The notes below the pieces were generated by a model that saw only the letters and a list, made by a program, of their open reading frames with translations, was not told the DNA's origin and did not search any database. From IMG/VR virus record IMGVR_UViG_3300043081_000027: a stretch of 64,000 bases of DNA. The stretch is one strand, 5' to 3'. The stretch comes from a virus. Of this stretch, positions 2,755 through 51,205 are shown piece by piece; within the stretch, counting starts at the first letter, position 1, and every line of letters begins with the position of its first letter. The position numbers and the translations under genes were made by a program.

Positions 2755-5700
2755 ATGGCATGTTCACTAGACATAAATGAAAAAGTTGATGCTTTTATAG
2801 AGATTTTAGAAAAATCAGAAGAGCCTGTAAAAAATGTACAGGCTCTTCTGACTACGTTTATTTAGAAAACATTTAGGACGGAAGAACTTAATCCTATTAA
2901 AGATGAAGTTATTAGGGAGTTTAATTTAAGTAAAAGATCGGATCAAATATCAGATTATAGAGATTTATTTGGTAATGATGCAGTAGCAAATGCTATGGAC
3001 TCTGTAAATGAGGAAATGGTTAATATTATTGTAGGAAAATATTTAAATCCAGAAGCCTATACTTAGGAAGATGATATTAAATCAAAAACAGATGAACTAG
3101 AGCATAGTTCAGAAAAGAAAGCTATCTTAAAAAATTCTAGTACATTTATCGATGATACTTATGGCGGACAATCATTAGCTAAAATGGATATGATGCAAAA
3201 GTTCCAATCTTTAATTGGAAATAGTACAATGTTCATGAAAGATTCTAATGGTGATGTCATAGAAATTGCTACTGGTAAATAGTTAAGCTAGAATTTATAT
3301 CGTTTACAACAAGAATTATATTCTGATATTATAAGAGATTTAAAAGAACTTCGAAAGGTAGATTTACCTGAAAATGTTTTTGATGGGTTTGAGTAGGTAA
3401 AAGCCATTATGGATCAATACTATAATTGGAATCCTACCATCATTAATAATTCTAGAAGCCGTAACACCGCTCTCTTCCAAAAAAGCTATAGAACTTTTAA
3501 TAACTACTTTATATTAAGTCATTTTGATCAACTTCTACAATCTCAATGTCCTGGACTTGTAGATATAGACCAAAGATATTTTGGATAGCTTCGACAAATA
3601 GCTGATGGTAAATATTTTGCCCATAATAAGAATGAAAATTTGGGAACTAGTTGGGGAGATGATACAGAATTATCTGATGGTGTTGGGGAGTTAAATCAAA
3701 GTATGAAAACCTTCTTAGGTAATCTTTGGTTATTTAGTAAGGATGGTACTAAAACTCGTTTACTCAAAGTACAAGAAATTGCAGATGCTTGGTGTGATTT
3801 AAAGAATCTTGTATTTCACCCAGAACTAAGATAGCTGGATGTTAATGGTAAAATAGTATGGGGATTTGCCAATACAACAGATGGTAGAAAGTTTATTAAA
3901 GAATATCTTACCGATTCTGCTGGAAACGTACTTACAGTACATGACTTAGTAACTGATATGGTAGATGATCCTACTAAATTAGACATGTTGCTTAAACTAG
4001 CTACATCTGATGTATTTGCAAAAAGAATGCAATTACCCATTACTAAACAGTTAATATATAAGTCTATGTACGCTTAGATGTGTGATATTAACTTAGGCGC
4101 TGGAATATATCCTTAGAAACTTGACCTAGATGGTAATGTCTATCAAGCATTTCATAATAGCAAGGGACGAAATATAATTACAATCAATGATAAAACTCCC
4201 GGATACTATAACCATCTACGTCAATTTTTAGATAATATTGAACGTATGAATATGAACCAATTACGTATGAAAGATACAGGTGAGTATGAAAATGTTCGAT
4301 TAAGTTAGGGAGCTAAAGACGCAAACACATTATAGTATATAGGTAATATAGCTGCTACATATTCTGCATTATTAGGAAGTAAGCATGGTTTATACAGTAA
4401 TGCAGAATCTGATTATTCTAATGAAATTAAATTAGGAACTATAACGATTGATCGTTCGGGATTATCACTGGAGAAACGTAGTGATAAGTATATTACCTTC
4501 ACAGATGGTAAAGTTACTTTTAAAGTTGGAAGTAACTTAAAGGTTTCTATTAAATAGAAAAATGGTAACTTTACTAACTTTTCAGATTAGTCAACTTTAG
4601 CTGATGCCCAATGGGACGTAATTAAAGAAATACTACAAATACAGGACTATCCTAAAGAAGCTTTTATAAACCAAAGCGCTTCTAATCTTATCACTGCAGA
4701 AACTTTGATAAGTCTTGCTGGAAATGTTATGTATAATTATGGAGTATCCAGTATATTACAAAATCGTAATGATCTTGATGATTTTAATATTGATGAGGAA
4801 GTAAAAGGATATTTTACTACTGAGGGTACTTATAAGTTAACTAAGGATAAGCAAGAATTACAACCATTTAATCCTAAAAATAATACCAAAATTAATAATC
4901 TAATGGATACCATTGACTAGCTCAATGGTAAGATTAGAGATGCTGTTACAAAAGGAGCTGATGGTAAGATGATTAATACTATTACTACATCATAGTTGGC
5001 TTCTAAAGCTACACAACAATGGCATCGTGATGCTAAACAATTGGGAGATGATTATGCTTGTAAAGATTTCTCTTTACATGATATATATAAAGGATTTGAA
5101 ATAGCTCGTGATGTAAAACAAAACCTTGATAGTAAGAAAGTAATTGAATTTAGTCCTGCTGAAAACTTTGCTTTTGGTTTTATTTCTGATTATGCAACTC
5201 CTATGAATGATACGGATAAAACTATTAGAGTCCTACCATTAATTATTTCAGATAAGGAGCGCATTCTTAAAATAAAACTAGATCTAAATAAAAAAGTTTA
5301 GTTTAAGAACTCTAAAGGATAGTCTGTAGAAGAACAACTTTGCAACCTAACTTAGGAAGATTTGTACGACTACATTAAATAGCAACTAGGAGGTTTTTAT
5401 GAGCATTAGTATAATCAAATAAAAGGGCGTTACGATAGATTAAAAAATTATGTCACCAATCCAGATGGTACTATTAATTTAGCACAATCTCAAACCTTTG
5501 CAAGTCAAACTGAAAATTAGGATTTAAGAGAAATGCTCATAATGTTAGATGGTAATGATACATCTGGTGTAAATTATAATACTCTATTTACTGAAAATGG
5601 TATTCTTAATTTTAAAGGAATTAATCAATTAATAGACTAGTTTATTTCAGACCACTCTGATGAAGCTCAAAATTTTGATATAGACGAAGAGGCTGTAAAG

Positions 5701-8700
5701 TTAGCAAGAAAATATGATTTAAATTATCCCACTACTTAGCTATTACTTAAAGGGGTTATTAATGAAATTAAATTAGAGGATGATACGACTTTAGAAAGAC
5801 AAAAGATTATAGACAAAATAATCAAAAGTCGTAATGATGATTTATAGGATCGAGCCATTGAAGCTGCTAAAAATCTAATTAAAGAATTACAATTAAGAGC
5901 GCAACTTAAAGGTGATTCAATTGATATTGTGGAAAATTCATTCTATAATATTGATAAAGGTCACTTTGTTCCTAATTATGGTTTAGTTGATCAACTATAC
6001 CGTTGGGGTAAAATTGATTAGGTTGCGGCAGAAAGTATGTTACCTACTGGATTACTGGCAACTTCACATAGTTATGGTGCAGAAGCTGGTAAAGAGCATT
6101 TGAAATTCTTTAAAGCTAAATCATTCCAAGTTGTATCTGATATACTTCAAGAAAATGGATATATCAACTTATTTGCACCTGATGGCAAAAGAATTCCTGG
6201 AGCATTACGTAAGTTAGGAAACAAGGAAATTGCGGGGACATTAGATGCGAAAAACGGTTTAGGAAAATGGTCACAAGGTGGAAAACTAGCTTTAGCAGCT
6301 ATTCGTTATAGAGAACTTTATGAAGGTGGTATTAAAGAGAAAGCACAACAAATTACAGACCTTAATCAATTAAGTGATATAGGACTTGTTTAGCAAGCTT
6401 TTAAATTTATTAAGTATCTTAATTCTTATAAGTACGGTGTTGTAACGGGACTTACGATAGACGAAGCGGCAAAAAGTATTAGTGATAACTATTCTACTAT
6501 GCGGGAATGCTATAGTTTAGATGATTATTTACGTAATCCTAAATTTAGTTTACTGACTTTAGAGAATGCTATTAATGACTACTTTAAATGGTAGGATATT
6601 GAACGTGGTATAGCTAATTACAATTCTGATAATGGGAATGTAGATATGTATGCTGAGGTTCGCAAAAATGTTTTCGAGAACGATAAAATAGAAATCGAGA
6701 AACAGTACAATAAGCGAATTGAGGATAGCAATACTAAATATGATAGTAATATTGCCAGCATAGATGAACAAATGGGGCTTATTACTAGTGTTGAAGAGTC
6801 TGAACGATCCGATGCTGAAAAAGAACGTCTTGTCGATTTAATTGCGGAAAAAGAGCAGTTAAAAGAAGCTAAAGCCGAAGCCGAAAAGAAATTAAAAGAA
6901 TCACTTAAAGAAACAATTACTAAAGTAACTGACCGTTATAACAAAGTATTAGAGCAAGTTCCTGCTTACATAAAAGCTGTTTAGGCAAATCCTAATTTTG
7001 CCCATACCGCTGAAATAGTAATTAATCCTGATTTGGAAAAGTATAATGCTTTTAGTTTTCTGTATGGTCAAGAATATACTATAGCTACAGTAGGAACGCA
7101 CTTAAACCATCCTGGTATGAAAAATAAGGATGATTTAAAAGCTTTTGAAAGTCTTTCTTGGGCACAGCAAGTAAAACGTAATGTATCTTTAACCGCTGCT
7201 AAACATTTATATTCTTTAAACTCTTTAAATGGTTTTGGAACTTATTGTAAAATTGCACAGATAGTTTCTGAATCTGATGCAGTTTATAATCTTACAGGAG
7301 CATAGGATGAAATGCTTAATGATGATGGTGCTAACTACACTAATGGTGTTACTCACCGTCTTGAAAATTATTCATTAGGTAGTGACGCTGTAGGAGTTGA
7401 TAAAAAGAACTTTTTCCACATGGAAGATGGTGCTTCTGGTACTGGATTTATTGGCAAGAATGCAACTTTCGTAGGTACGAATTTACGTATCAGAAACTCT
7501 AAGGCCTATAGATTATAGAATTTCCAAATGCTTCGAGGAGCTGTAGGTTACTTAAATCCTTACTTAACTAATGGTGGTTTAAATATTACAGAAAGCTTTG
7601 AAACTTATTACGATAGTAATACTAGAAAGTGGGAGTTCTCTAAAATGAACTACGAGGACTTTGATTATAAAATTCCCACGTCTTATAAGCCACATATTTA
7701 GTATGAAGTTTAGCTTGAGGATGGTTCTTGGACTGCAGCTAATGGGCTATTACAAGGTTATAATGTTCGTGTAATAGGAGATTCTATTAAATTTAAGGAT
7801 GGTTATACAACTTTTAAATTCTCTAATGTATCTTAGATTGATTCTACTGGAGAGGTTAAATCATTGCCTAATGCGGCAAGCTTTAATTTTAGAGTTAAAT
7901 TGGATAATGTACACGATATTTGGGAATTTTTTGGTGGTGCTTATTCTGGAAAAGCTAAAGAACAGGTTATAAATGGAGATTTGATATTAACAATGGATGA
8001 AAATAGTTATGATGAATCTTCATTTGATTTAACTACATGGGTTGTAAATAATGTAGGAAAACGAAGAGAAGGTGTTGGTATGGATGTTAAAGTAGAATCA
8101 CAAACGCAAGTAGACCAATACTTAAAAGATTCTATGATACATTATTTATCTTCCATTGAAACTATTAAATAGGGTTAGAATAAAATCAATAAGCGTTCTG
8201 ATATACGAAATGAAAACTATATTCCATTATTTATGGAAATGGATATGCACGATGCAGGAGTGCAATTAAATGCAGAACACCATTCCGATGATTCAGTTCT
8301 TTCCATGATGACTTAGGTTTTAAATGCCTTAGGAGCTAGAGGTTATACTTCTTAGGAAGCAGATAAAACTTATCAAGCTTTGCAAGGTCTTACTAATGCT
8401 GCATTGTAGGAATACATTGATTATTCAAGAGCTGGTGATTCGCCACAAAAACGTCAACACTTAGAGAATTTCATAGCACATATAATTGGTGATACTATTC
8501 AAGCTAATAGTACTTTAGATGAAGGTACTTTAGCTGGTGCTTTAATGCACCAAGCATAGAAGTTATTAAGTCGTAATAAGAACTTTAAATTTGAAGAAGT
8601 TCGTTAGTACTTACCTATTGATGATCCAGCCTTACTTAGAAATATGATTTCTAAATTAGCTTCTGGGTTAACAAAAAGATGTATTCGTGTTAAATTCCCA

Positions 8701-11700
8701 GGGTCTATGGATGTCATGTCCCCGTCAAACTCTATCTATAGATTATATGACGGTAAAATGTTATCCGAGTATAATGGAGATTTAACAGCTTTAACAGAAG
8801 CTGATAAAAAGGCTCCTATATTAAAACCCCATGAAATAAAAATAGACAGAGTATATCATATAGAAGGTTGTCCCGGAGCTGATAGTAGAGGTTATATAAA
8901 AATTAATTACCCTACCGATTACTGGCAAGTTCGTCGTTTCCTAGCAACTGCGGAAGGGCAAAAAGTAGAAGTCAGAGAAGTTCTTTCAGAAGGAAGAGAG
9001 CTTGCTTCGTTTGGTATAACTTTTGAAGCTATTGACGAAAATGGTCATAGGAATACTTATAATATGTGGGATTTAGCTACAGCTCGAGATATGTTTATTA
9101 AAGACAAGCTCGAATTGGAGAATGGAAATTCCGATTATAAGTAGAATCATGCACAAAGAATGCAAGATTTGCAAAATGCTTTATTTGCTTTAAGTGATAA
9201 TCCAAATGTTAAAACCACTTAGGTTATTGATTATGATGCTAATGGTAATGTAATCTATAAAACAGTACGTATTGCAAAGGAAACTGTTAAGAAACAACCT
9301 TATGAAATTATTATGTCTCAGCTTTATAAAACTACTTTTGGTTTAAGGGCTGGGGATTCTATAGGAAATATTATTAATGATAAGTTATTCTTCTTTAAGA
9401 GAGCTGTTGAGAATTGGGAGAATGATAAGAACAGACTTCCAGAAGAAGCTTATGATGTGCAACTAAAACAAATTAGTGGTAAGCACATTAATTTACTATA
9501 TGATACAGAGTCTAATAATCCTGATGGTTTTGAGGAGTTACAATTTGATCCTTATATTGATTAGCAAGGTACTATATGGCTTACTAACAATAAAGGTGAT
9601 AAAATAATGAAATTGTCTTCTAAAGATGATGTAGTTCTAAGTAATGGTTCTGGTGATATTATTATTAAAACCAAAGATTTAAAATGGTATTGTGATAATA
9701 GTAAATATGTAGACTTAACTATATCTTCTGGGCGTGATGAAAATACTCTACAAGAAATACTTGGTATATTAAGAGAATCTGATAGTAAGCAATTAAAGAG
9801 CCTGTTTAACCGTCTTGATACTTTATGGGAGTCAAGAGATAGGAAAGAAGCTTTTGAAGACAAAACTCCAGAAGAGCAAGCAGAAGAAAGGGCTAAATTT
9901 GACCATAAGTTTATATCTGTAGGACGTTATAATTTTGAAAGCACTAAAAAAGCTTTACATAACTTTTTAAATAATCGTTATATAGATGATGAAATAAAGT
10001 ATGAATTATTGGATTATGCTCTTAATAGTGATAAGGATACTTTTAATGAGGATAAGTTACGTGAAGATGTTGAATCTTACGGATTACGTGACAGTATTGC
10101 AGACCAACTTATTAAAATGCGTAAAGGTCATATAGGTTCTATCTTTAGAAATTCTAAATATATAGGAACATCTTTCCAAAAATCTTTGGAAGTACTTGCA
10201 GCTCGTATTCCCGCACAATGTATGCAATCCTTTATGTCTATGAAGGTTGCTGGATTTGATACTAGTGGTTTGAATACAGCTTATGTAAGCCGTTTCTAGA
10301 CTTGGTTACAAGGTTCTGACTACGATATAGACAAGGTTTCATTGCTTGGATTTAAATTTAGAAATGGGCACTTCATTACGTGGTCAAATTTCATGGATTT
10401 AACTTCTACAGCAACTCTTAAAGCTTCTGAAGAACTTTCTTATCCTACTAACCTAGCTGCAGAGGTTCTTGAAAATGATGCTATTAATAAAACAAGCCTA
10501 AATGAGGATGCTCTTGAAAATGTTAGACTTGATACTAGTATTGATAAAGAAAACCGAGAAGGGGTTAGAACTTTATATGTTCAAGTAGGAGCAGAAGAAG
10601 TACCTTTATTAGAAGTACGTGATGCCTTTAAATAGAATAAAATTAAAGAGTTTACTGATACTTATAATGATATTAAATCTGAATATGACGATATAAGTAT
10701 AGAGAAGGGTGATGCAGAAGCAAAAACTTACTTAAAAAGTAAATATAAAGAAGTACTTGGTTAGGAAGCAGGTCGAAAATAGGTTAAAACTCTACTTAAA
10801 GAGTTAGAAGACCATTATAAGTTCGTAGGGCAAAAGGAATAGGTAAAAGAAAATAAAAAAGCTGGAATTTTCACAATAAATCCTATAGCAGATGCTGAAA
10901 CTCTTGCTAATTACGAAACTCAAATTCAAAGAGTTGTTTATGGAGTTATCCCAACTGGTGGTGTAGTATCTATAAATGGTGCTGATAGTACAGTTATTAA
11001 TGATATGTTAGTAAAGTATGGCTTTTCTCTTAACCAAAACGTACTAACATAGACTGGTGAGAATGTTTCTGTAGCTAAAGACTTCTATGATTATATTACA
11101 CGTGAGGATTAGATTGCAGGAATTCCTGTCAGTGAGAATTTGGATTCTAGAATTATTATTAAAAATGAATCTGGTTACACCCTTAACTACTATCCTGGAG
11201 AATTTGCGGATGAGAAAGTACAAGTTGCTAAAATTAAAGCCCTTGCTAAATTTATTGATGCTGTAAATAAATTTGGTGGTATTCCTAAACTATCTATTAC
11301 GGAAGATTTAGACGAAGAAACTAAAGAAGCTTATGAGGAACATAATAATGCTTTATAGCAATTGATGGATGAAATCAATGAGCATAACTTGTATTTAAAA
11401 GATGGCAAAGACTATAGTCAAGATGCTCTTTTAAACTTCGTATCTTCTAATATGTATAATGTGGGCACAAACCCTAGTAACCTTATCTAGGGTACACAAT
11501 CCGTAGATGCTAAAGATGGTTCTGTAAATAGAATTAAAAAATTAGCTAACGAGGGCGACTACAAAACTAAGCTTAAACGCTATGATCCAGGTTCTATTAC
11601 TAGCTTATGGAATATGGAAGCTTTAACTATTGGTGGTAAAAAGAATACTGGTATTGTTGCTGCCAATCTAAAAGTATTTGAAGGATTAACTCAATATACT

Positions 11701-14520
11701 AACATGCTTCTTAATGAGGGTACTCATGAAGAGTTACAAGACTTGCTTGCACATCGTAATATTGCTGGAAAGGATATTCATTTACTTGCAAATGTTTACC
11801 AGCAGAATAAACATAATTTCACTACTCGTGAAATTTAGGAAGCTCTTGATGCTGTTGACCAAACTCTCGATGCTTACTTGGAATATTCTGGATTCTTGTC
11901 ATTGTCTACCGACAATGCTAAAGACCCTACACTTGCCAAAATTAACGCTGGTGAGAAATTATTAGGTTTATACTTATGTGGTGTAGCAGTAGGTATTGAT
12001 GTTCCCAGCTTAGTTAAAATATTAACATCTAAAGCAGCCGCAGAATCTGTAAAATTATTAACTAGTAATATGTTTAATAATGCACAAGGATTCTTTGATG
12101 TTAATGCTTTAGATCGGTATCTAGCATCTGGCCCAATTTAGGTGGTAGATGAGTTTAATGTTAGTATGCTTAACTAGCCAGTTCTTAAAGCATGGATAAT
12201 AAGTGTTTGGAATAGAGAACACAAAAAGGCAGATTCCCAATTAAGTGCTAGTAGTAAAATAGGTAGAAAACACCTTTCTCATGCCATACAAAAGGATGGA
12301 TGGCAAAAGTTTAATGACGCTTTAGTAGATTCTCTTAAAAATATTACAAAGGAAGTACATAAAGGTGATGATGCTTTAGAGGTAGCTGAATAGTTAGAAA
12401 ATGGTAATCAAAATAATGATTCATCAGAAGTAAAGGAAGAGAGTGCAACTACTGAAAAAGCAAAAGAGAATCTTTGGGCTGTTTACAATCTTCTGAAAAA
12501 GGTTCAAACTTAGGTAAGAGATTTTGCTAAATCCTAGGAAACTATTAAAGATTGTTGGGTATAGTTACCTAATGGTAGATGGGTTCAAGCTTGGAGTCAA
12601 ATTAGACGTTTAAATTAGGTAGCAAATGAATTTAAAAGATTCTCTCAAGTAGCTAAATTAAATTAGCAACTTCCTAATGCTATGGATGAGCAACTTGCTT
12701 GGATTCGTAAATTTGAAAAAGGTATTGCATCACGAATTTCTGAAATAAGTAAGTAGGAGTTGGACAATCACCCCGAAATGTAGCAAGCTATAGACGAATT
12801 AGAATAGCTAAATAAAGAGTTATATGCTTAGATGATGCAATAGGGAATACTTTCAGGAGAATAGTTTGACCGTTTGAAATATTCCGTAAGTTTGAGTAAA
12901 TTTGTAAATGATGCAGAATACCAAAAAAAGATATGTAGTATCTATGGTAAGTTAAAGTATGTTGTAAATGTTTATGATGCAATGGCTAAACTTCCACATT
13001 ACTTAGGATATGCTAGAACTCTTGCAGCACTTAGTGAAACTATGGGAGAAACATCTAAAATATACCAAACTGTAAATTACATTTCTCAAAATGTTATAAA
13101 GAGTCTTGGTGATGAATAGCATCGTAAGAAAGAACTTACTCGTTTAATAGACTGGGTTAATGATTGTCTTACTAATGATTTCTTGTTAAATCGAGGAACT
13201 AATCTTACAATTAAGTCTGGATCTAAGTATTATGAAAAAAGTTATGGTCTTACTACTGGTATAGACCCTACTTTAAAAACAGTTGGTGAGGGTGCTACTT
13301 CCACCATACAATTAGGAACTTTGGAAGGCAATATGTCATTTAAATATATAATGGAAAATGAAGTATTGCCGGATTTAAAAGAGAAGTATCCTGCATTTGA
13401 TTTAATAAGAGACTTAAATCAAATTAAGTTTGATAAAACTAATGATAGAAATACATTAGTAAAAATGGCAACTAAGTCTACTATGCTTCCTAGATCTGAA
13501 CAAGAAATACAAACTTTAGCTAAGTACAAGGAAGATCTCATAACTTTATCTAATATTAGGTTATCTCAATTTAACGGAGAAATTAATTTAGTAGATGCTT
13601 TATTTGCTTACAATTTAATTGTAAATAAAGGTAAGGTATCTGGAAATTCTCTTACTAATTTGTTTGAGGATTATGCAATGAGTTAGGGTAAGTAGTAGAC
13701 TGATGGGTAGCCTTCTGCTTTTATAGAAGATTATTATAATTCAAGACGAGTTCCAAACGAAAGCTTACTTGAAGAATTAGCATTTTCTGATAACTAGGTA
13801 CAGAACTTCTTAATGGCTACAGCATAGTATGATCCTACTTATAAATCTAAAGCAGAGTATATCTACATACGAAATCCTTTTACTAGATAGTATGTACTAG
13901 CTCAGAAAATAAACAAAGAGGAGATTAGAGCGCAATACACTGATGAGGATTTAGGTGTAGAAGATTACGGAATTGATGATGTTGCCGAAGATTATATTAA
14001 TGAGGATTATTCTGATTATGATGACGATGATTACGAAGGTTCAGACTCATCAAATTATAAGAATCAGCGTGCTTGGGAGGCAGGAGTTGAAGTATAGGGT
14101 TATAAAATACTTGGAGTTTCTTCTACTGTGGACGCTTTTAATAATTTTGCAACAGCAATTTATGGAAAGTAGGAAGTCGAAAAAGTCTTTGATAATATAG
14201 AAATTAGTGAGGATGGTAAATAGATAAAATCTATTACTTATAAGTCTGGTGATGATCCAGACGCTCGCACTCTTACGTATGATGATTTATTTGAAGGTAC
14301 TTCGGATATAAGATCTGAAAGACGTAAAGCCTTAGAAAAGGAATTAGGAATCAAAGCAAAAGATACTCCAGAATCTAAGCTAGAAAAAGTACTTATTAAT
14401 TTTGGTTTAGTAACTAAAGATGCTGATGGTAACATACAACTAGTTTAGAATACTAATGCAAACCCTACAGTAACTTTAGGAGATGTTATAAAAATGATTA
14501 AAACAGGTAAACCATGCTAA
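2755..14520 (+). CDS. Giant virion-type RNA polymerase (about 3921 codons), TAG read as sense (probably Gln)
   Basis: ATG at 2755 in frame 1; every frame-1 track fragment from 3640 to 13686 and onward to TAA at 14518-14520 is in the same frame. In the stretches traced codon by codon (2755-4920, 12121-12900, 13681-14520) only TAG occurs in-frame. Contains the RNAP beta-prime-like DPBB catalytic signature AARIPAQCMQSF...QGSDYDIDKVS (nt about 10200-10335; compare beta-prime NRQPSLHRMSIQAF...NADFDGDQMAVH and the QDE-1/phi14:2 gp66-type DYDGD motif). Confidence 0.7.
10204..10335 (+). other. Catalytic double-psi beta-barrel motif of the giant RNAP (RIPAQCMQSF ... DYDID metal-binding aspartate triad)
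   Basis: Read directly from the frame-1 translation; DYDID is encoded at 10318-10332, just after an in-frame TAG at 10297-10299. Confidence 0.6.
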
Positions 14521-14521
14521 T

Positions 14522-15607
14522 ATGGCAGGATGTATGAATAAAAATGATAGAGGATACCAGTCGTTAAGTAGAATGGCTGGTATCCCTTCTATGGTATTAG
14601 ACGTTTATTGTCAAAAGTATTTAGATTCATTTAATAGATTACCTAACTTAGATGAATTACCCCTTGTGGATTCATCTAAGCATTTAAATGAATCTTTAAA
14701 AACAAAATAGATTGGAGATTCAAGTTTTGCTAGTAATGAAGCTATACAAAAAACTACAGGAGCACAGTCCTTAGGAGAAGCGCAAGTAAAGCTTAATAAT
14801 ACGTATAGAGATTTACAAGTAAACTTAGTGGAAGTTACAGATAAATCATCTTTACTTGAAGTATAGCATAGACCTAGTGTATTTAAAGAACTTAATCAAG
14901 AATATACAGGGGAAAATTTTGATGTTCAATCTGATACTGACAAACGTGTAGTTCTGCGAAATATGCTTGGTAAACTAAAAGATTTTTATGGCATTAAAAT
15001 TAATGAAGTTACGTCTAAACAATTATGTGAAGGTGACTTTGCTAATATAATACCAGATGCTAAAACCGCTAAAGCCTTTATTTATAATAACGAAATATAT
15101 ATAAATACGGATATTGCAGATATAGATGCACCTATACATGAATTAATGCACATATTTTTAGGTGGTATGCGCTATACTAATCCGACTATATATTTTAATT
15201 TAGTGTCTAAAGCATAGCAGTTTAAGAATTTACAAAGTCTAAGTAAGGTATATCAAGATAGAACTCAATCTGATTTTTTAGAAGAAGCTTTTGTTTCAGA
15301 GTTTTCTAAGCTTTGCGCTGGTATGCACAGTGAATTTGATTCTTGGTCTGCTGAGGATCTTAACCCGTTATTATATGAAGTCCGTAGAAATATGGACTCA
15401 GCTTTAATGGGTAATAAAAGTGTTAATAGTATTGATCCTAATGAACTTTTTAAAGCAAGTTTCTTAGATATTGCTATGCGCACAAAATCTCCTGAATTAA
15501 ATAGAAGCGATTTTAGTATTCTAAATCTCGCTGAATTACATAGACAGAATGCGAATATTAAATCTAAGATGCTAAAAGATGGTGACTTAGTTGAAAAATG
15601 TGATTAA
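14522..15607 (+). CDS. HExxH-motif protein (putative zinc metallopeptidase), 361 codons, TAG-recoded
   Basis: Frame 2; track fragments 14522..14710, 14963..15217 and 15323..15607 are joined by in-frame TAG; ends with TAA. Motif APIHELMHIFLGG at about 15137-15151. Starts 1 nt after the TAA of the RNAP gene (TAAtATG). Confidence 0.5.
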
Positions 15608-15609
15608 GT

Positions 15610-18600
15610 ATGGCTTGTAAATTTATATATAAAGGCAATAGAGTTTTTAATTCTGAAATTGCACTTGATGAGTTTCTTATTAATAGTAAGAAGTATTAGG
15701 AAGGTTCTGATATTGTATTTGAGTTAAGTACAATTTAGAAACAGCGGGGTGCTAGAATTAAACAACGTGGTAAGGCAGCTGATAAGTTAATTACTCATAA
15801 TCCTGTAATATTTGATACAGATTTATTCGAGGATTATGAAATGAATGAGTTCGGTTCTGATAACTATGGCGTTACATTCGCTCTTAAATAGTATGTAGAT
15901 GCGGAAGGTCACCCACTTTTTCCTATATTTAATCTGGAAAACTACTGGCAACATAAAATGCCAGACTGGTAGAAACAAGAATATTGGACTAAAGGTTATT
16001 AGGATGATACAGGTGAAGTACATAAATGTGATAAGTACGAGTATCAAGCTGTTTGGGGAGATAAAGATCCTAATGATATTACAGCAGCTCCTACTAATGA
16101 CTAGTTGGAAGTTGGTAAAAAAGTAATGGAGAGAGTTTGGCCTATGCAAGGTTTTATGGGTACTGGTGTACATAGAATGATTGCAGCTTATTGGAAATGC
16201 TAGACAGCTCATAAAGGTAGGGCTAGTGCTACACAAGTTAAAGCAGAAATGACCAAAGCTCTAGATTTTCAATTAATAGGAAGTGGTAATAACAATCCTT
16301 TATTATCAGAATTTAAAGGCATTAAATACTCAGATTTTCTTTCTGATAAAGTAGATGATACTTACTCAAAATGTAGAGCTATTCACGATGAACTTAATTC
16401 AAAGTTTTTAACAGATGAGTAGCGTAAATCTGGTATGGAATTGTATTTCTTACCTGAAACCGCCATTACTACAGAAGTTGATGACTTTGAACATCCCGAT
16501 AAGAAGAGAAACTTATTGGGTAATGTAGACTTATTTGTAATTGATCCGTCTGGTAACATTCACATTATTGACTACAAAACTTCACCTAAAGAATATAATG
16601 AGTACAACTCAGCTAAAATTAGAACATTCTACTATTAGTTAGCTACCTATAGACGTTTGACAGAGCGTATGGGTTTTGCATTAGACCATAATTCTAATGT
16701 GTATGTAATACCTATTAAGTTTGAAAACTTCTAGATTGATCCAGAACAAACTGATGTTACAAAGCTTTGTAAATTTGATAATCTTAAATTACGTGAGGGA
16801 AGTTCTGGTATTTTAGAGCGTTTGGAAGTTAAGGCAAGTCTTAGTTCTACAGGTGTAAACTCCGATACTATTAATAGTAACTTGGATAAAATCATTCCTA
16901 TTAAGAATACTAAAATCATGGCTGATGGTGATATTCTGGATGATGTTAAAACTTAGATGAAAGCCTGGTTTCCAAGTTTCGGTAAGTACAATGAAATTAC
17001 TAAAGAGTATGTTGTCAAGATGCTTAAACGTAAAGGTCGTGATAAGATAAATCCGAACAGTTTGAAATATACTTATAAGGTTGGTAAGAAAACTGTAATT
17101 ACTGATAGCTTTGAAGCTCTTGTAGATGGGGTATACTAGGAATATTAGAAGATGGAAGAACACGTTATGGATAGAACTTAGGGTGTTAAAACCATCTTAC
17201 AAGAAGCTATAAATAATAAGGAAAATGTAGTCATTGATACAGGATATGCTCATAGCTCTCGTAAATTTGCAAGAGAAAGTTATCTAGAAAATTTGTTAAA
17301 CCCTTATACTACTGGAGAATATGAAATCCTTGATGATTATAATGAAGCCACAGAACGTCTTGGAATAATATTACTTAAAAATATACATACCAATAAAATT
17401 GATGTATTAGTAGTAGATACTAGTAAACATGCTTTTGATGATGAAATAGCACTAGGTGGTACTGAGAATAGTCCAGGACGTAATAAGACTTTAACAGGAA
17501 CTTTTATTTCTGATGTTACTGCAAGAAATAAACCTAATGAGCTAGTACTTGATAGTACTTATGGTAATATTAGAATGATGGAAGTTATGTAGGCTTTAAA
17601 TAATATGTCTGCTTTATTTAATAGTGATTCCGCAGGAATGGAATCTACATTAGGAGAGATTAAAATGTTTAATCAATTTCATAATGATGGTTGGACAGCT
17701 TCTAATGAACAACTTCTTTACAACTTTAAAGAATTACATAAGGCTAATAAAACAGAAGACTAGATTCATTTAGGTAAGGATATAAAAATGTGTAGTTAGC
17801 TCGATCTTATTAAGCATAGGTGTAATGAGATTATGGCAAATCCAGAACATGATAGAAAATGGAATGGTATTCAAACTGCTATAGATAATACACAAAACTT
17901 TACAGTTAATCCTATTATACTTAAATCTCAGCTAATCGGATTAGCACATGACATTGAAGAGAAATTTAAGTTAAAGAATGATACTAATGCTAGAAACTTG
18001 GAAGGTGATAAAGCAGAAGCATATAGTTTCTTAGCAAACTTATATTCTGCTATTGCAGAAATTGATGGTATTCATTTTAAATAGCAAATTAAAGACCATT
18101 CTGCTTTCTTAAATTAGTCTGGTGTAAAAAGAATTTTCAAAGAGGGTTGGTCTGGAAATAGTCTTGATAATCCAGGAATGCTTGATTCTGACACCCTTAA
18201 TAAGATGGGTCAACGTCTTAATGAAGCCTACTAGCTGACTCGTGACGAGATCCAAAATATTTCAAAGAAGATTTATACATTGAGTAAAAAATTGAAGGAG
18301 GAAAACAACTTCGGATATTTGAAATCTCGAACTATCGGAAATGAAGCATCTATTTACAAAAATTTATATGATGATACTTATGAAGATGATTTAGTATTTA
18401 AAAACCCATTTGATTCTCACGGAGTAACATTGTCTGAAACTGAAAAGGAGTTTTTAAAGCAATCATTGCTTTTAATCAATCATAATCGTTATGGAGATGT
18501 AAATACTATGGATGACCTAGAATTAGCTATTATGCAGGATCCATATAAATATCTCCGAGTACCATTAACTGAGGGTACTAATGCTTCTAAAGTTGCATAT

Positions 18601-20574
18601 AAAGGTATGTGGGAAACCATTAAGGAGAAGTTTAAAAACCTTATCCCTACAAAACTTAATATGCAAAGAATGTTTAAAGGTTTGCTGGTGGATGAAACTT
18701 TATTGGATAACGAGGATGTTCGTAATAAGTATCAAAATAAGGATGCGGAACTTTGGGAAATGAATACTGCATTTGATGCTGGTGAAACTGAATAGGCTAG
18801 AAAATCCATGTTAGCTAATTATGGTAAGAATTATTTTGAGCATAATCTAGAATTACTTACCATGAAACATGCTTATGCTTATACATTAAAGAATAATATT
18901 AATAAAATATTTCCACTATTTAAAGCATGTGCTTTACAACTAGAAATGGGTGGTGCTATAATGAATACTCGTTTCGCAGAAGACATTTAGTACTTACATG
19001 ACTTTATTACTAATAAAGTACTTAATATGTCTATCTAGGATCCTAAATGGAGAACTGCTTAGTACGTATGTGGTAACTTAATGTCTGGAGCTTCTAAACT
19101 AGCATTAGCTTTTAACCCAAAACAATTTTATCAAGCTATTGATGGTTTATGGAAAGATATTTCTTTAGTGATAAGACAAAATGAATACGATCAAGCTTTC
19201 AGTCAGTAGAATATGAAAGATTCTTTCTGGTGGGTTTACAGAGATTTAACCCATAATTGGGGTGACGGTAAATCATTGGCTTAGGTTCTTAATGAATAGT
19301 ATGGTATTAATGATATGGATATGAATTCCTACATTGATAAAACTAAACCTAATCAATTTGGTATCTTTAATTTGGATAATGTAATGTTCCATTTCGCGTC
19401 ACGTCCAGACTTCTATAATAGAATGACTATTTTTGGAGCTCAGATGAGACATGATGGTTGCTTTGAAGCACACGACGAAGACGGTACATATCATTGGGAA
19501 AAAGACTTGCGCTATAATATCTATGCTAAATATTGTAAGGATGAAAGTGCTGTCCCAGCTTCTTTAAAAGCTGAATATAATAAGCAGAAAGCTCGTTATA
19601 AAGCTGCGGCTACACAATTTCAAGCAGAGGGTGCTAAATTTAAGAATTCTGATGGTGAAATGGAGGATTTTGTTGTAGACCTCTCTAATCCAAAGCCATT
19701 ACCTAGAGCGTACACAGTTAAAGAAGCTGAAAGTATTAAATCTTTAGCAGATTTAATTTATGGATATTATTCTCATGAAAAGAAATCTATGATTCAATCA
19801 ACGACTGCTGGAGCTTTATTTATGCAAATGAATACATTCTGGTCTTCTAAGAAAAACTAGTGGTTTTTACCAGGAGGAGTACGTATGTAGGGTACATATG
19901 AACATTATTCTGAAACTTAGGAAGATGGAACTAAAAAGTATTATTACCAAGATGAGAATGGTAATATTACAGATTAGGAAACGGATACACCATTCATGGT
20001 TTGGAAGGGTCGTTATTAGGAAGGAATCATGGTAACATTAGCTAATATTTTTAATGATACTTTCTATGGTGATGAAACTGGTAAGAAAGGCTTAGGTAAT
20101 GCTATTGATAAGTATTGGAACGCAACTGATGAAAACCTTCGTAATGCTTATAGAAATAATTTAAAGTAGTTACTATATGATTTATTAATGTTTCTATTCT
20201 TAGGAATGCTTATTGCACCTGCTTTAGAGAATGCTGCGAAAGCTCATGCTAAAGAAGTGGGTAATGGTGACTTAGGTGATGCTATGATAAATAATGCTAC
20301 GGTGAATTTAACTTCTATGTTATCTACATCTACAGATGATTTTAACGCACTTAAATCTATTTTTGGTAGAGGTGTACAATGGACACCATTCTCTATATCT
20401 ACACTTACAAACTCTTATTAGAGAGTAAGTTCAGCTGTATCAGGTAATAGTGATTGGTATGATGCTATTGTTAAAATGTCCGCAGCAGGAAGAACATAGG
20501 AGAATATGTTTGATTACATAAAAATAAATACACTCGGTCGAAAGATTGGAGACAATGGAGTAGTAAAAGAGGAT
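15610..20574 (+). CDS. Large late protein (1654 codons) with an internal RecB-family (Cas4-like) PD-(D/E)xK nuclease domain, TAG-recoded
   Basis: Frame 1 from ATG at 15610 to TGA at 20572-20574, only TAG in-frame where traced (15610 to about 17830 codon by codon; beyond that only the 3' end of each track fragment was checked). Nuclease motifs GNVDLFVIDPSGNIHIIDYKTS followed by FYY[TAG]LATY give the family signature QhxxY only if TAG=Q (nt about 16440-16700). A hydrophobic segment lies near the C-terminus. Confidence 0.6.
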
Positions 20575-20581
20575 TGAAAAA

Positions 20582-20627
20582 AAAATGGGCGACAACTTAG
20601 GAAAAATCCTAAGCTGCCGCCCATTTT
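20582..20627. terminator. Bidirectional intrinsic terminator at the convergence of the late (+) and early (-) modules
   Basis: Inverted repeat aaaatgggcgacaacttagg / cctaagctgccgcccatttt with a 6-nt loop. Its two mismatches are A/C on the + transcript but become G-U wobbles on the - transcript, where the hairpin is followed by nine U; the + strand has tttt after the stem. Confidence 0.55.
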
Positions 20628-29807: not shown

Positions 29808-30040
29808 TTTACTATTTTATAAGTTACATTTTCTTCATTCCAACCTTCTAAATCAGTTCCTGATATACCAATACCTCTAGACTGTAGAAACTTTATTAAA
29901 GTATTTATTATGTCTTTAGGCTTTTGTATATTTTCAGAATATCTCTTTAAAAAGTCTTCATCCGATTCTCCTTCATTTTGTTCAAAATAAAGGGTTCTAT
30001 TCATATTCAAGCTTACTTGAATTCCTTTATACATACTCAT
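29804..30040 (-). CDS. hypothetical protein
   Basis: ORF; ATGA overlap with the sigma gene stop. Confidence 0.4.
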   Translation of the reverse strand: MSMYKGIQVSLNMNRTLYFEQNEGESDEDFLKRYSENIQKPKDIINTLIKFLQSRGIGISGTDLEGWNEENVTYKIVK

Positions 30041-49016: not shown

Positions 49017-49355
49017 TTAAAATGGTAGCTGGTCACGAAGTAGTTTTGTAATTTGTGCAGGCATGTCTTTTGCTTTCATACCCAAGTCTGGAAACTTTTT
49101 ACACCCATCAGAAAACCACTCACAAACTAAAGAAAGAACCTCTATTAGATTGTCATCAATAGGTTCTCCCTTAGTACACATGCGAATCACTTCGTAATGT
49201 GTTATTCCAGGTTTTTTCTGCTTAAGAGCATTTGTAAGATAACAAATAGTACTAATAAGTCCTATTTTATCTCCTAAATCTTCAGAAGCAGGAATTCCAA
49301 AGAATAATTCATGTTTTAGGCGATATTGCCAATCTTTATATCTATTCGTATCCAT
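49017..49355 (-). CDS. hypothetical protein
   Basis: ORF. Confidence 0.4.
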   Translation of the reverse strand: MDTNRYKDWQYRLKHELFFGIPASEDLGDKIGLISTICYLTNALKQKKPGITHYEVIRMCTKGEPIDDNLIEVLSLVCEWFSDGCKKFPDLGMKAKDMPAQITKLLRDQLPF

Positions 49356-50385
49356 AAGCTTTATACCAAGCGATTAATTTAAGTAACCAGATAAATTCAA
49401 CTACCCCAGCTTTATACCAGTGCTTTTTCATAGAAACAACACTACTATTAAACTTGTCTGTAGTTTCAACTACTAAAAAATTACCACTAACAGAAGGATT
49501 TTTCAAATCATACTTATCAGCACCAAGCTGTAATAACCAAGTATAGAAAGCAATCTCTCTATAATAATGGAAATTCTTAACGGCATAATTAAATCCATCT
49601 AAAGGCTTTCCAGTAGTTTTAACATCATTAATCACAATAGAATTATTTAATTGATCAATGGTGTAATTATCCAGTTTAGCTTTTAACTTCATAATGAAAG
49701 GTTCTACATCAGGTAGATTTACTTCTACATCTAATAGTATAGTAGTTTCATTATAGCTAGGAAGCTCATTATCTAGAATGTCTTTAGGATGTAACAATTT
49801 CTGTATAGCTTTATTAGCTTCTATAGAACTCATTACATTCTGCAATCTATCTAATGAATTAGCATCCAAATAAATTGGCTTACGAGTATCAGTAGAAGAT
49901 TGCTCAAATTTAAACCTTTCTTTAAAATAAGGCTTGATAGTTGCTTTAACTTTGCTTAATTGATTTGCTGTTAAGAAACCATGATAATAATCAACTGTAC
50001 TAGCAGCATCTCTAATTTTTTCATCGTCAGGCAATTCTCCAGTTTTACTTGCATATCCCCAAAGTAAATCAGCCATCATTCCTACCTTAGCGGAAGGAGC
50101 TTTAACGTCTTCACAAAGGAAAAAGGTGTCAGGTTGCAAGCTGAGTTCATGCACTGCCGAACCAAAAGCTAAACTAGATGAAAACTTGTTATGTTTTGAT
50201 AGCCCTTCAAAGAAATCTTTAGGACAACCTCCTTGCATTGGGTTAATTAAACCCATTCTTGAGTTACTAATGTAATCTGCATACTCTTTACCAAAATATA
50301 CAGAATCATCAATATCAGTTATCTTTAAAGTTTCTACTAAAGGCTTAATAGTTACTTTAGATAACATTTGCTTATTTGGAATCAT
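49342..50385 (-). CDS. hypothetical protein, possibly a PD-(D/E)xK-type exonuclease
   Basis: Weak motif series LLDVEVNLPDVEPF ... INDVKTTGK ... YYREIAFY; low certainty. Confidence 0.3.
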   Translation of the reverse strand: MIPNKQMLSKVTIKPLVETLKITDIDDSVYFGKEYADYISNSRMGLINPMQGGCPKDFFEGLSKHNKFSSSLAFGSAVHELSLQPDTFFLCEDVKAPSAKVGMMADLLWGYASKTGELPDDEKIRDAASTVDYYHGFLTANQLSKVKATIKPYFKERFKFEQSSTDTRKPIYLDANSLDRLQNVMSSIEANKAIQKLLHPKDILDNELPSYNETTILLDVEVNLPDVEPFIMKLKAKLDNYTIDQLNNSIVINDVKTTGKPLDGFNYAVKNFHYYREIAFYTWLLQLGADKYDLKNPSVSGNFLVVETTDKFNSSVVSMKKHWYKAGVVEFIWLLKLIAWYKAYGYE

Positions 50386-50917: not shown

Positions 50918-51205
50918 CTAATTAACTTCTATAACTTTAAAATTCTTATTAATATCAGTTTCTACTTCTTTATCGTATGGATATACGTAAAAAGCGTGCT
51001 GCAAATCTTCCCAACAGGATTCATATTCTAATTGAAATCCTTCTTTTGTAGCCCACTTAGAACGTTTTTTATCACGTCTGCACATATCCAAATAATGCTG
51101 AAATTCCTCCTCGAAAGTTAGAACCTCAGCATTTTGTATTTTAGGTTTACACCTATGCAGTACTAATAATTTATGTTCCTTACGATAAGTTTCATCAAAG
51201 TTCAT
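50918..51205 (-). CDS. hypothetical protein
   Basis: ORF. Confidence 0.4.
   Translation of the reverse strand: MNFDETYRKEHKLLVLHRCKPKIQNAEVLTFEEEFQHYLDMCRRDKKRSKWATKEGFQLEYESCWEDLQHAFYVYPYDKEVETDINKNFKVIEVN

Follow-up and report, generated by a model that had tools for sequence, protein, structure and literature searches.

[quoted passage not shown]

Introduction

Among the viruses of the human gut, crAss-like phages rank first in abundance, and the first minutes of infection by them are poorly understood. The only crAss virion RNA polymerase (vRNAP) characterised so far, phi14:2 gp66, transcribes ssDNA or denatured DNA efficiently, native phi14:2 DNA weakly and dsDNA of M13 not at all (10.1101/2020.03.07.982082), and the source of its template in vivo is a puzzle. 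This protein is found in phi14:2 virions together with gp65 and gp67 (record annotation; preprint), and mass spectrometry has placed gp47, gp49 and gp50 in virions of crAss001 (PMC10172136).

PD-(D/E)xK (PDDEXK) domains in giant transcription-block proteins of crAss-like phages have already been reported (Yutin et al. 2021, PMC7886860). In those phages the late genes are TAG-recoded, a giant late protein adjoining the gene for a DxDxD RNAP carries such a domain, and separate PDDEXK nucleases lie in other blocks, as is the case here. The report consists of one sentence and a figure, without active-site analysis, family size, architecture or links to specific virion proteins, and its supplements do not state which crAss group carries the nuclease architecture. 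The recoding of TAG to glutamine in crAss-like late genes has likewise been described (Yutin et al. 2021, Nat Commun 12:1044, PMC7886860), and recoded crAss phages with no detectable suppressor tRNA have been noted in the literature. The novelty implied by a first-pass annotation of the present DNA, made from the sequence alone, is therefore lower, since PDDEXK domains in such giant proteins were already known. Here we analyse one such protein (hereafter the nuclease protein), encoded on a 64,000-nucleotide stretch of the genome of a gut crAss-like phage (IMG/VR record IMGVR_UViG_3300043081_000027; the window).

Results

Reading frame, family and recoding

The gene starts with the ATG at 15610 and stops with the TGA at 20575-20577, giving 1655 sense codons; the earlier figure of 1654 codons ending at 20574 was one codon too few.

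15610..20577, + strand: gene for the 1655-aa nuclease-bearing giant late protein

An exhaustive search recovered 630 cluster representatives at E<=1e-3, and among the best 150 of these the proteins are mostly 1450-1730 aa long and have the domain around residues 150-400. Conservation counts below refer to 111 family representatives, and the close set comprises 13 full-length homologs of 30-54% identity. The nuclease protein matched no family in a PHROGs scan, the whole-family profile had no match among PDB sequences, and megablast of the locus found no match among deposited phages. When tblastn was run against INPHARED with the query and a far-branch member, only three unannotated gut contigs matched, and INPHARED contains neither an annotated nor a cultured member of the present lineage. 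UniProt automatically labels chunks of giant proteins from cr116_1 and from a 'CrAss-like virus' entry as PD-(D/E)XK domain proteins.

The frame contains 35 TAG codons and no TAA or TGA. Over this stretch the two alternative frames contain 66 and 272 TAA plus TGA codons, so chance does not explain the open frame. TAG encodes glutamine in this gene: in the homolog alignment, Gln fills 32% of cells at TAG columns and 35% at CAA/CAG columns, against a background of 4.3%, and the invariant-Q columns 343, 825, 875 and 1417 are all TAG codons in the nuclease protein. Codon 343 is the glutamine of the QhxxY motif, as had been proposed, with Q in this column in 13/13 close homologs and 110/111 family representatives. 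ARAGORN found no tRNA of any kind, and hence no suppressor, in the window, which is part of the genome only. Late genes contain 132 TAG per 6842 codons. The 36 standard-code ORFs of the early block (10,441 codons, two of them ending in TAG) contain no in-frame TAG, a zero by construction, and it is the 35 TAG of the nuclease gene against this zero that point to late expression. A further TAG-rich ORF (51195-52223) had no match in a Pfam search.

The nuclease domain

The profile search that the first-pass annotation had proposed for its nuclease assignment returned Pfam PDDEXK_1 (PF12705) above the curated threshold (30.4 bits vs cutoff 22, E 4.9e-7, residues 183-360). The isolated domain matched the same profile at E 1.2e-8, Exo5 was a second, sub-threshold Pfam match, and PF12705 is pre-annotated in 12 of the 13 homologs. 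The motifs previously quoted (E, GNVD, DYKTS and TAG-L-A-T-Y) lie where they had been placed and are part of the most conserved stretch within the N-terminal half of the protein.

16111..16809, + strand: RecB-type PD-(D/E)xK nuclease domain, residues ~168-400
16138..16173, + strand: motif I region W177..Q180..G184..H188 (H188 in 111/111, G184 in 110/111)
16456..16458, + strand: E283, conserved acidic residue ahead of motif II (108/111)
16519..16530, + strand: motif II, G304-N-V-D307 (G304 and D307 each in 111/111)
16570..16584, + strand: motif III, D321-Y-K323-T-S (DYKTS; D321 in 109/111, K323 in 111/111)
16636..16650, + strand: QhxxY motif, Q343-L-A-T-Y347, codons TAG-TTA-GCT-ACC-TAT (Q343 in 110/111, Y347 in 111/111)

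H188 is a probable metal ligand by analogy with RecB His956. Structural evidence comes from a model of the closest homolog, 54% identical, standing in for the nuclease protein. In this model motifs II and III occupy consecutive beta-strands of a restriction-endonuclease-like alpha-beta-beta-beta-alpha-beta core, and the closest structural relatives are Dna2, AddA, AdnA, Exo5, MGME1 and RecE, which are end-resection or ssDNA-end nucleases. The QhxxY motif lies on the helix that comes after the motif II and III strands. No second copy of the domain was found elsewhere in the window.

The domain had been labelled 'RecB/Cas4-family'. The RecB part of that label holds, supported as it is by Pfam, by fold comparison and by catalytic residues that do not vary; the Cas4 part does not, as an Fe-S centre would need a conserved Cys cluster and none is present. 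Indeed, the domain alignment contains no invariant or near-invariant Cys, the Cys content is 0.42% overall, and the neighbouring genes are phage vRNAP-module and replication genes with no CRISPR-Cas adaptation module. Cas4 proper was therefore rejected, for want of both Fe-S cysteines and CRISPR context.

The best explanation of the domain is a catalytically intact RecB-type, Mg-dependent DNA nuclease lacking the Cas4 Fe-S cluster, with the near-invariance of the catalytic residues suggesting selection on catalysis. It is highly improbable that the domain instead serves the transcription complex by binding DNA or RNA or by processing RNA, or that it is a structural remnant, given that the set H...E...D...DxK...QxxxY is essentially invariant in 111 clusters and that the best fold matches are DNA-end nucleases rather than RNA enzymes.

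A conserved three-gene module

Upstream of the nuclease gene lie two co-directional ORFs, with gaps of 1-2 nt between successive genes, and downstream is a hairpin predicted to act as a bidirectional terminator between the late and early blocks. A separate exonuclease gene is found outside the module.

2755..14520, + strand: 3921-aa giant ORF, DYDID motif at 10318-10332 (GSDYDIDKV); starts MAC, ends GKPC
14522..15607, + strand: 361-aa HExxH (zincin-like) protein, HELMH at 15137-15151; starts MAGC, ends EKCD
20582..20627, no strand assigned: hairpin with a 20-bp stem, A-run and T-run flanks, between the convergent late and early blocks
49342..50385, - strand: TAG-free 347-aa PD-(D/E)xK exonuclease of the early block (BLASTP E 2e-6 to crAss001 gp70; DUF3799 match sub-threshold)

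The 3921-aa ORF is a probable virion RNA polymerase on the basis of one motif and of weak alignments to the catalytic loops of crAss001 gp50 and the frurule RNAP; neither the ORF nor its RNAP core had a PHROGs match, and the core gave only spurious beta-propeller matches against PDB. The 361-aa HExxH protein had no Pfam or PHROGs match. Its ORF is the conserved upstream neighbour of the nuclease gene in four other loci. Three of these (L001, L004, L005) show the full order of giant ORF, ~360-aa HExxH ORF, nuclease ORF and convergent early block, whilst on the fourth, a short contig (L006), the HExxH and nuclease ORFs are visible. Moreover, P0061 (E 8.5e-61) and P0021 (E 9.5e-42) carry the HExxH and nuclease proteins as a single in-frame fusion, and the two ORFs are fused in L007. 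Conserved neighbourhood and in-frame fusions together suggest that the HExxH protein is functionally linked to the nuclease gene, and it may process or activate the module. The nuclease gene ends the late block downstream of the DxDxD giant gene in the window, where the 361-aa ORF lies between them, and in L001, L004, L005 and L007; the position was also compared with phi14:2 and frurule. The giant DxDxD, HExxH and nuclease proteins thus form a conserved module encoded last in the recoded late operon, at its 3′ end.

A separate observation is that paired cysteines occur at every gene junction of the module, with a C-terminal Cys in the upstream protein and an N-terminal Cys in the downstream one. 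Their positions vary (-1 to -3 and +2 to +5), as do the neighbouring codons, and a nucleotide-level cause was rejected on these grounds.

Termini, C-terminal module and links to virion proteins

Outside the nuclease domain three further features were recognised.

15610..15684, + strand: Met-Ala-Cys-Lys motif, then a beta-hairpin and a helix (residues 1-25 in all); invariant Cys3
18187..20529, + strand: mostly alpha-helical C-terminal module, residues ~860-1640 (from hhalign and the conservation profile; structure model low-confidence)
20170..20226, + strand: conserved hydrophobic helix LLYDLLMFLFLGMLIAPAL, residues 1521-1539

A Cys is present within residues 2-5 in 106/111 family members. The corresponding M-x(1-3)-C signature, which is a feature proposed in the present analysis and not an established membership criterion, occurs in 106/111 family members vs 1/92 other proteins, and is common to phi14:2 gp65 and gp66 and crAss001 gp49 and gp50 (N-termini MACK in the nuclease protein, MSCK in gp65 and MAKKC in gp49). 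A lipoprotein-type Cys was rejected, as there is neither a signal peptide nor a lipobox.

The C-terminal module contains the invariant blocks NDMDMN (19309-26), RPDFYNRMT (19402-28) and YGYYSHEKK (19759-85); the proxy model of residues 480-1677 was unreliable (pLDDT 52) and was left out of fold searches. The hydrophobic segment noted near the C-terminus in the first-pass annotation was recovered at residues 1521-1539 (Kyte-Doolittle 2.16), is conserved in 13/13 homologs and aligns with the gp49 hydrophobic helix 1208-1226, making it a candidate membrane-inserting segment. By hhalign, the family profile matched gp49 (80%, E 1.4e-5) and phi14:2 gp65 (72.6%, E 3.2e-5), with confidence limited in both cases to the N-terminal motif and to ~800 residues at the C-terminus; six negative controls all gave <=0.2%, and gp49 and gp65 matched each other at 99.6% probability. 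The C-terminal module thus probably shares distant ancestry with crAss001 gp49 and phi14:2 gp65.

A third link is to crAss001 gp47, residues 1714-1880 of which matched the family nuclease profile at 34.8 bits (300 shuffles gave <=3.6 bits) and the nuclease domain by hhalign at 90.5% probability (E 1.3e-6). Pfam found no PDDEXK domain in gp47, gp49 or gp50, and it took the broader family profile and hhalign to reveal the gp47 link. HMM searches of phi14:2 gp65, gp66 and gp67 with nuclease, full-length and zincin profiles were negative. phi14:2 therefore seems to manage without the nuclease domain, which in turn cannot be universally required for vRNAP function.

Discussion

The nuclease protein as a probable packaged cargo

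The best reading of the nuclease protein would be that of a packaged cargo. The first-pass annotation had favoured cargo over a replication enzyme, and this has been strengthened, if indirectly: the gene belongs to the late set and is rich in recoded codons, the early block has its own TAG-free gp70-like exonuclease, and there are homology signals to gp65, gp49 and gp47. It had also pointed to the virion proteomes of related phages, in which mass spectrometry does detect these proteins (gp47 and gp49 in crAss001, gp65 in phi14:2). We consider it more probable than not that synthesis of the nuclease protein is confined to late infection and that the protein enters the capsid together with the vRNAP, to be ejected into the following host, the packaging being judged from distant homology and gene position only. 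More specifically, the protein would be a gp65/gp49-type RNAP-associated virion protein that carries an intact RecB-type nuclease in the present lineage, a reading to which we assign a probability of about 0.55.

Alternatively, the protein may stay behind and act late in the producing cell, trimming or resolving concatemers or salvaging nucleotides from host DNA, its place in the late operon reflecting timing only. RecB-type nucleases often serve recombination or maturation, and late, TAG-recoded expression would suit such a role; however, a soluble maturation nuclease is hard to square with 1655 aa, a gp49/gp65-like module, a hydrophobic helix and a virion-type N-terminal Cys. A dedicated early-block exonuclease is present already, and in the loci examined the nuclease gene is always within the vRNAP module, which makes late action in the producing cell quite improbable.

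A possible role at DNA ends

As packaged cargo, the nuclease protein would be made late and packed in the capsid alongside the vRNAP. It would then be ejected into the next host cell, where the C-terminal hydrophobic helix could hold it at the membrane entry site, and the nuclease would act locally on DNA ends, most plausibly resecting the phage genome from its leading end as it comes in. Such resection might supply an ssDNA template for a crAss-type vRNAP and/or recombinogenic ends. The idea of an ssDNA template is put forward because phi14:2 gp66 prefers ssDNA or denatured DNA and because the closest folds are end-resection or ssDNA-end nucleases. Local action on DNA ends after ejection is proposed tentatively. 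If correct, an intact end-processing nuclease whose gene is tied to the vRNAP module, and which is probably packaged along with that module, would be an obvious candidate for the missing template factor.

An ejected effector could also be aimed at the host, degrading chromosomal or plasmid DNA or destroying or decoying defences before phage gene expression. Giant packaged anti-defence proteins are known in other phages, such as P1 DarB and T4 IPI, whereas the known cases of host-DNA degradation by phages use nucleases expressed de novo. A host-directed effector would share the packaging evidence given above, its active site is intact by sequence, and some fold relatives are defence-associated Cas4-like proteins (ACE1, Cas4). 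Nevertheless, cargo copy number is low (~6 copies per RNAP-associated protein being the example given by the crAss001 authors, PMC10172136) and the conserved hydrophobic helix would keep the protein anchored at the membrane, so that local action is favoured over genome-wide action. Moreover, strict linkage to, and occasional fusion with, vRNAP-module proteins points to a role within the module, and the Pfam, PHROGs and PDB searches gave no match to an anti-defence family. None of the present findings favours action on the host over action on the incoming phage DNA. We therefore regard a host-directed effector as unlikely, and bulk degradation of host DNA as less likely than local action.

The conserved Cys-Cys junction signature may bear on the packaging and tail threading of these huge module proteins. 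One speculative arrangement, to which we give little chance of being right, is that vRNAP-module proteins are delivered as an ordered head-to-tail chain, joined by disulfides between C-terminal and N-terminal Cys, whose terminal nuclease resects the genome end to give an ssDNA template. If true, disulfides would do in this chain what peptide bonds do in the single polyprotein of some crAss phages.

Comparison with known systems

The nuclease protein shares its fold and the H / D / DxK / QhxxY constellation with the RecB/AddA/AdnA domains, RecE, Exo5, MGME1, Dna2 and Cas4. It has no helicase partner in the same chain, the domain lying within a 1655-aa helical phage protein, and it lacks the Fe-S cluster cysteines of Cas4, AddB, Dna2 and Exo5.

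Podovirus ejection proteins such as T7 gp14/15/16, P22 gp7/16/20 and N4 gp50-52, together with the packaged anti-restriction giant P1 DarB, offer an analogy: all are large proteins from inside the virion that leave it before the DNA or along with it, and enzymatic domains and membrane-inserting helices are present in some. The nuclease protein was not found to resemble any of these in sequence or fold, and we know of no ejection protein with a RecB-type nuclease.

Closer likenesses come from crAss-like phages themselves. crAss001 gp47 (2341 aa, 'RNAP subunit') is late-transcribed and virion-packaged, and carries a homologous RecB-type domain in which D, DxK and Q..Y are kept, with an HExxH at residue 2157. 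It differs in that the domain lies in its C-terminal third, in the order nuclease then zincin rather than zincin then nuclease as here; the motif I His is apparently replaced, there is no N-terminal Cys, and the rest is not detectably related. phi14:2 gp65 and crAss001 gp49 are, like the nuclease protein, encoded by the last late-block gene after the DxDxD gene, and share with it an M-x-C-K N-terminus and, collinearly over the C-terminal ~800 residues, a distant similarity that takes in the hydrophobic helix (73-80% probability). However, gp65 has a zincin HExxH domain where the nuclease protein has the RecB nuclease, and gp49 has neither; the zincin here is a separate upstream ORF, and in some relatives an N-terminal fusion. 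Taken together, the nuclease protein is a well-supported further example of the PDDEXK-bearing giant proteins already reported from crAss-like phages, and a large uncultured protein family is now anchored to the mass-spectrometry-verified gp65, gp49 and gp47.

Gene organisation and recoding

The window has a GC content of 32% and is divided into two convergent blocks, with the nuclease gene at the 3′ end of the first:

1-20577 (+): late block, long ORFs that are open only with TAG read through
20639-64000 (-): early block, ordinary standard-code ORFs
15610 (ATG) to 20575-20577 (TGA) (+): nuclease gene, 1655 sense codons

The late ORF reported in the first-pass annotation stands, although its count of 1654 codons was one short. 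It contains 35 in-frame TAG codons and no TAA or TGA, and the remaining two frames carry 66 and 272 TAA and TGA codons across the same stretch. A hairpin (20582-20627; 20-bp stem with nine G-C pairs, A9 and a T-run on its flanks) lies 3′ of the nuclease stop codon, between the convergent blocks, and is likely a bidirectional terminator. The late operon therefore ends with the nuclease gene.

The flagged protein was aligned with 13 full-length homologues that share 30-54% identity with it and seem to come from standard-code relatives. Glutamine filled 32% of homologue cells at the 35 TAG columns and 35% at columns where the query has CAA or CAG, against a background of 4.3%; no other residue was comparably enriched at the TAG columns in these 13 homologues. 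Four columns of invariant glutamine (343, 825, 875 and 1417) are TAG in the flagged gene. The first of these bears out the earlier proposal that TAG supplies the glutamine of the QhxxY motif, being invariant across the 13 homologues and retained in 110 of 111 family representatives. Across the late block TAG accounts for 132 of 6842 codons, or 40% of its glutamine codons, and the 36 early ORFs end in TAA (24), TGA (10) or TAG (2). No tRNA gene was found within the 64-kb window. Recoding of this kind is already known, being textbook for crAss-like phages and covered by Yutin et al. (PMC7886860). With 35 TAG codons to be read as glutamine, the nuclease protein could be produced only once the late code is active.

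Two further observations concern the code. The early block is otherwise TAG-free, but a 1.3-kb gap in it is filled exactly by a 343-codon ORF with 11 in-frame TAG codons (51195-52223, -). This ORF gave no Pfam match; it contains three 'KYDYS...C..HGEF.Q...H..G.GC.KC' repeats and, at its C-terminus, a 'VDFYLP...IEYNG.QH' motif, and looks like a homing-endonuclease-type insert using the late code. Moreover, at two loci of relatives (L004 and L005) the nuclease-gene DNA does not translate to the homologue protein, and the neighbouring HExxH ORFs (L004 8847-10004; L005 8931-10001) are interrupted by 6 and 7 stop codons in frame. Recoded variants of relatives that otherwise use the standard code may be the source of this DNA, and that would accord with code switching across short evolutionary distances.

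The nuclease domain and its family

The motifs quoted in the first pass were recovered where they had been placed, within 16456-16650. They are listed with their conservation in 111 full-length representatives of the family:

16456-58 (+): E283 (108/111)
16519-30 (+): G-N-V-D307 (G304 and D307, 111/111 each)
16570-84 (+): D321-Y-K-T-S (D321, 109/111; K323, 111/111)
16636-50 (+): TAG-L-A-T-Y, Q343..Y347 (Q343, 110/111; Y347, 111/111)

H188 was likewise found in 111/111. Pfam PDDEXK_1 matched residues 183-360 of the flagged protein at 30.4 bits (E 4.9e-7; cutoff 22 bits) and the isolated domain at E 1.2e-8, with Exo5 as a second, sub-threshold match. A RecB/Cas4-family nuclease had been proposed, with a profile search as its check. 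The RecB part holds, and the Cas4 part does not: the homologue alignment contains no conserved cysteines in the domain, which is therefore of RecB/AddA/RecE type and not a Cas4-type Fe-S nuclease. A structure model was made for residues 1-467 of P0001, the closest standard-code homologue, using the 12 other homologues as its alignment. P0001 stands in for the flagged protein, to which it is 54% identical overall and with which it has all catalytic residues in common. The model (mean pLDDT 79, pTM 0.76, most of residues 160-300 at ~90 or higher) has end-resection or ssDNA-end nucleases as its nearest structural relatives.

An exhaustive profile search with the domain alignment over 1.84 billion cluster representatives returned 630 proteins at E<=1e-3, 224 of them at E<=1e-10. 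The best 150 of the 630 are mostly 1450-1730 aa in length, with the domain at roughly residues 150-400; the short entries among them are presumably fragments. In conservation the motif block equals the best stretches of the C-terminal half, and such near-invariance of catalytic residues is, as far as sequence can indicate, the mark of what should be a working enzyme. By tblastn against deposited phages the family was found in no cultured or annotated phage, and the only matches were three unannotated human-gut contigs.

The C-terminal half contains four invariant blocks:

19309-19326 (+): N-D-M-D-M-N
19402-19428 (+): R-P-D-x-Y-N-R-x-T
19759-19785 (+): Y-G-Y-Y-x-H-x-K
19825-19860 (+): Q-M-x-T-x-W-S-x-K-K-N-Q

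These match the nuclease active site in conservation and could form a second catalytic or binding centre; neither Pfam nor the PDB yielded a match to them, and the structure model of this region is not a confident one.

Similarity to virion proteins

Three independent lines point to a relation between the nuclease protein and virion proteins, namely the nuclease domain, the remainder of the protein and the N-terminus. Firstly, a profile built from the 111 domains matched residues 1714-1880 of crAss001 gp47 at 34.8 bits, compared with at most 3.6 for 300 shuffled decoys, and hhalign gave 90.5% probability (E 1.3e-6). The gp47 domain retains the D, DxK and Q..Y residues and is followed by HEAFH at residue 2157. 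Pfam misses this RecB-type domain, and a gp47 nuclease goes unmentioned in the crAss001 papers examined. Secondly, when the full-family profile was compared with a profile of crAss001 gp49, a single collinear alignment resulted (253-1661 to 108-1336; 80% probability, E 1.4e-5), and the comparison with phi14:2 gp65 gave 72.6% (E 3.2e-5). The controls (gp50, gp45, gp46, gp66, gp67 and reversed gp49) reached at most 0.2%, and gp49 and gp65 matched each other at 99.6%. Confidence in the alignments to gp49 and gp65 is concentrated in two places, the C-terminal ~800 residues with their hydrophobic helix and the first few residues of the protein. Thirdly, 106 of the 111 family members have a cysteine within residues 2-5, typically as M-x-C-K. 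The same feature occurs in phi14:2 gp66 (MACKIENIKYKGK) and gp65 (MSCK), crAss001 gp50 (MSKRC) and gp49 (MAKKC), the orthologues in the cultured Kolpuevirus 'frurule', and the two ORFs upstream of the nuclease gene (MACS and MAGC); it was seen in 1 of 92 other proteins of the window, crAss001 and phi14:2.

Mass spectrometry has placed gp47, gp49 and gp50 in crAss001 virions, from which they are believed to leave in a partly unfolded state (PMC10172136); transcription of gp47 is late (PMC8375218). The phi14:2 proteins gp65, gp66 and gp67 are also present in virions (preprint; record annotation).

The probable vRNAP module and its junction cysteines

The nuclease gene is preceded by two ORFs, with gaps between neighbours of only 1-2 nt. 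The first, of 3921 aa and probably the virion RNA polymerase (vRNAP), bears GSDYDIDKV and aligns weakly with the RNAPs annotated in crAss001 (gp50) and frurule, the alignment falling exactly on their DFDxD loops. The second is:

14522-15607 (+): HExxH ORF, 361 aa, zincin-type PIHELMH, unmatched in Pfam and PHROGs

The order of giant ORF (3500-3800 aa), ORF of 356-385 aa, nuclease ORF and convergent early block recurs in three standard-code relatives with identities as low as 30%, and on a short contig with a far-branch member an HExxH ORF immediately precedes the nuclease gene. Two branches have a fusion instead, with the HExxH ORF joined in frame to the nuclease protein at its N-terminus (P0061, E 8.5e-61; P0021, E 9.5e-42), which is a Rosetta-stone link between the two. 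In crAss001 gp47 and phi14:2 gp65 an HExxH motif lies inside the giant protein itself, and the zincin of gp65 has already been proposed to process or activate the module (preprint). The adjoining or fused zincin-like protein may do the same here.

At each junction within the module a cysteine stands at -1 to -3 of the upstream protein, and the protein that follows it starts M-x(0-3)-C:

Window, 2704-2763, 14506-14533 and 15593-15621: ...TRCN(stop) / MACS...GKPC(stop) / MAGC...EKCD(stop) / MACK...
phi14:2 (L008): gp67 ...NTIC(stop) / gp66 MACK...QECK(stop) / gp65 MSCK...
frurule (L003): ...NKIC(stop) / MDKC...

The pattern is repeated in further relatives (L001, L004, L005, L006 and L007), and at the gp47/gp50/gp49 junctions of crAss001 (L002) gp47 ends in ...RCNS. 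Background frequencies are 1/92 for N-terminal and 5/92 for C-terminal cysteines. The final protein of the chain never ends this way (0/111 in the nuclease family), and the one fused zincin-nuclease protein inspected, P0061, has lost both junction cysteines. On one reading the cargo proteins are chained head to tail by disulfides, mimicking a single polyprotein; on others the cysteines form a site recognised by a protease or one that binds metal. Inter-subunit disulfides are documented for crAss001 virions, not for cargo proteins, and in some crAss phages the module is a single polyprotein (preprint).

Early-block genes

The early block encodes PolA, NrdD, two ligases, a DnaB-type helicase, a Toprim-type primase candidate, SF1 and SNF2-type helicases, Thy1, a dNMP kinase and a sigma-70 family factor. 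PolA is nearest to Crassvirales, with 47.5% identity to frurule, followed by IAS virus and cr1xx phages. The sigma-70 factor (30037-30897, -) is complete, with Pfam regions 1.2, 2, 3 and 4 all above threshold. It is an early-block gene product, and the phage carries a probable giant virion RNAP besides; the factor may steer host RNAP to late promoters. Two separate PD-(D/E)xK candidates were found:

49342-50385 (-): 347 aa, TAG-free; BLASTP E 2e-6 to crAss001 gp70, sub-threshold DUF3799
52198-52746 (-): 182 aa; sub-threshold PDDEXK_15

As crAss001 gp70 is annotated as a 'PD-(D/E)XK exonuclease', the early block has its own homologue of that enzyme, which agrees with the first-pass suggestion that the giant protein may not be a replication enzyme. 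No paralogue of the giant protein's nuclease domain occurs elsewhere within the window. The separate early candidates fit the published picture, in which crAss phages encode up to three PDDEXK nucleases with differing roles (PMC7886860).

Proposed role and comparison with known phages

Homology, gene position and N-terminal signature point to the nuclease protein probably belonging with the packaged, ejected proteins of the vRNAP module. Through its conserved hydrophobic helix (1521-1539) the protein might be held at the membrane, close to the site of DNA entry, in which case the nuclease would act locally. There it might process the end of the phage genome that enters first, supplying template or recombinogenic ends. 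The single characterised crAss vRNAP, phi14:2 gp66, which is also the only one shown to be active in vitro, is efficient on single-stranded or denatured DNA, inactive on double-stranded M13 and weak on native phi14:2 DNA (10.1101/2020.03.07.982082). Because of this single-stranded preference and the end-nuclease relatives of the domain, we would favour leading-end processing over bulk degradation of host DNA.

A nuclease domain in a giant crAss late protein is already in print (Yutin et al., PMC7886860), and UniProt auto-annotation labels giant-protein chunks of cr116_1 and of a 'CrAss-like virus' entry as PD-(D/E)XK domain proteins. The size and architectural constancy of the family, its invariant active site, the ties to gp65/gp49 and gp47, the zincin fusion and the junction-cysteine pattern were not met in the literature examined. 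HMM searches of gp65, gp66 and gp67 detected no copy of the domain in phi14:2, and its function therefore cannot be universal. In place of a counterpart to the nuclease region, phi14:2 gp65 has as its enzymatic domain the zincin at residue 245.
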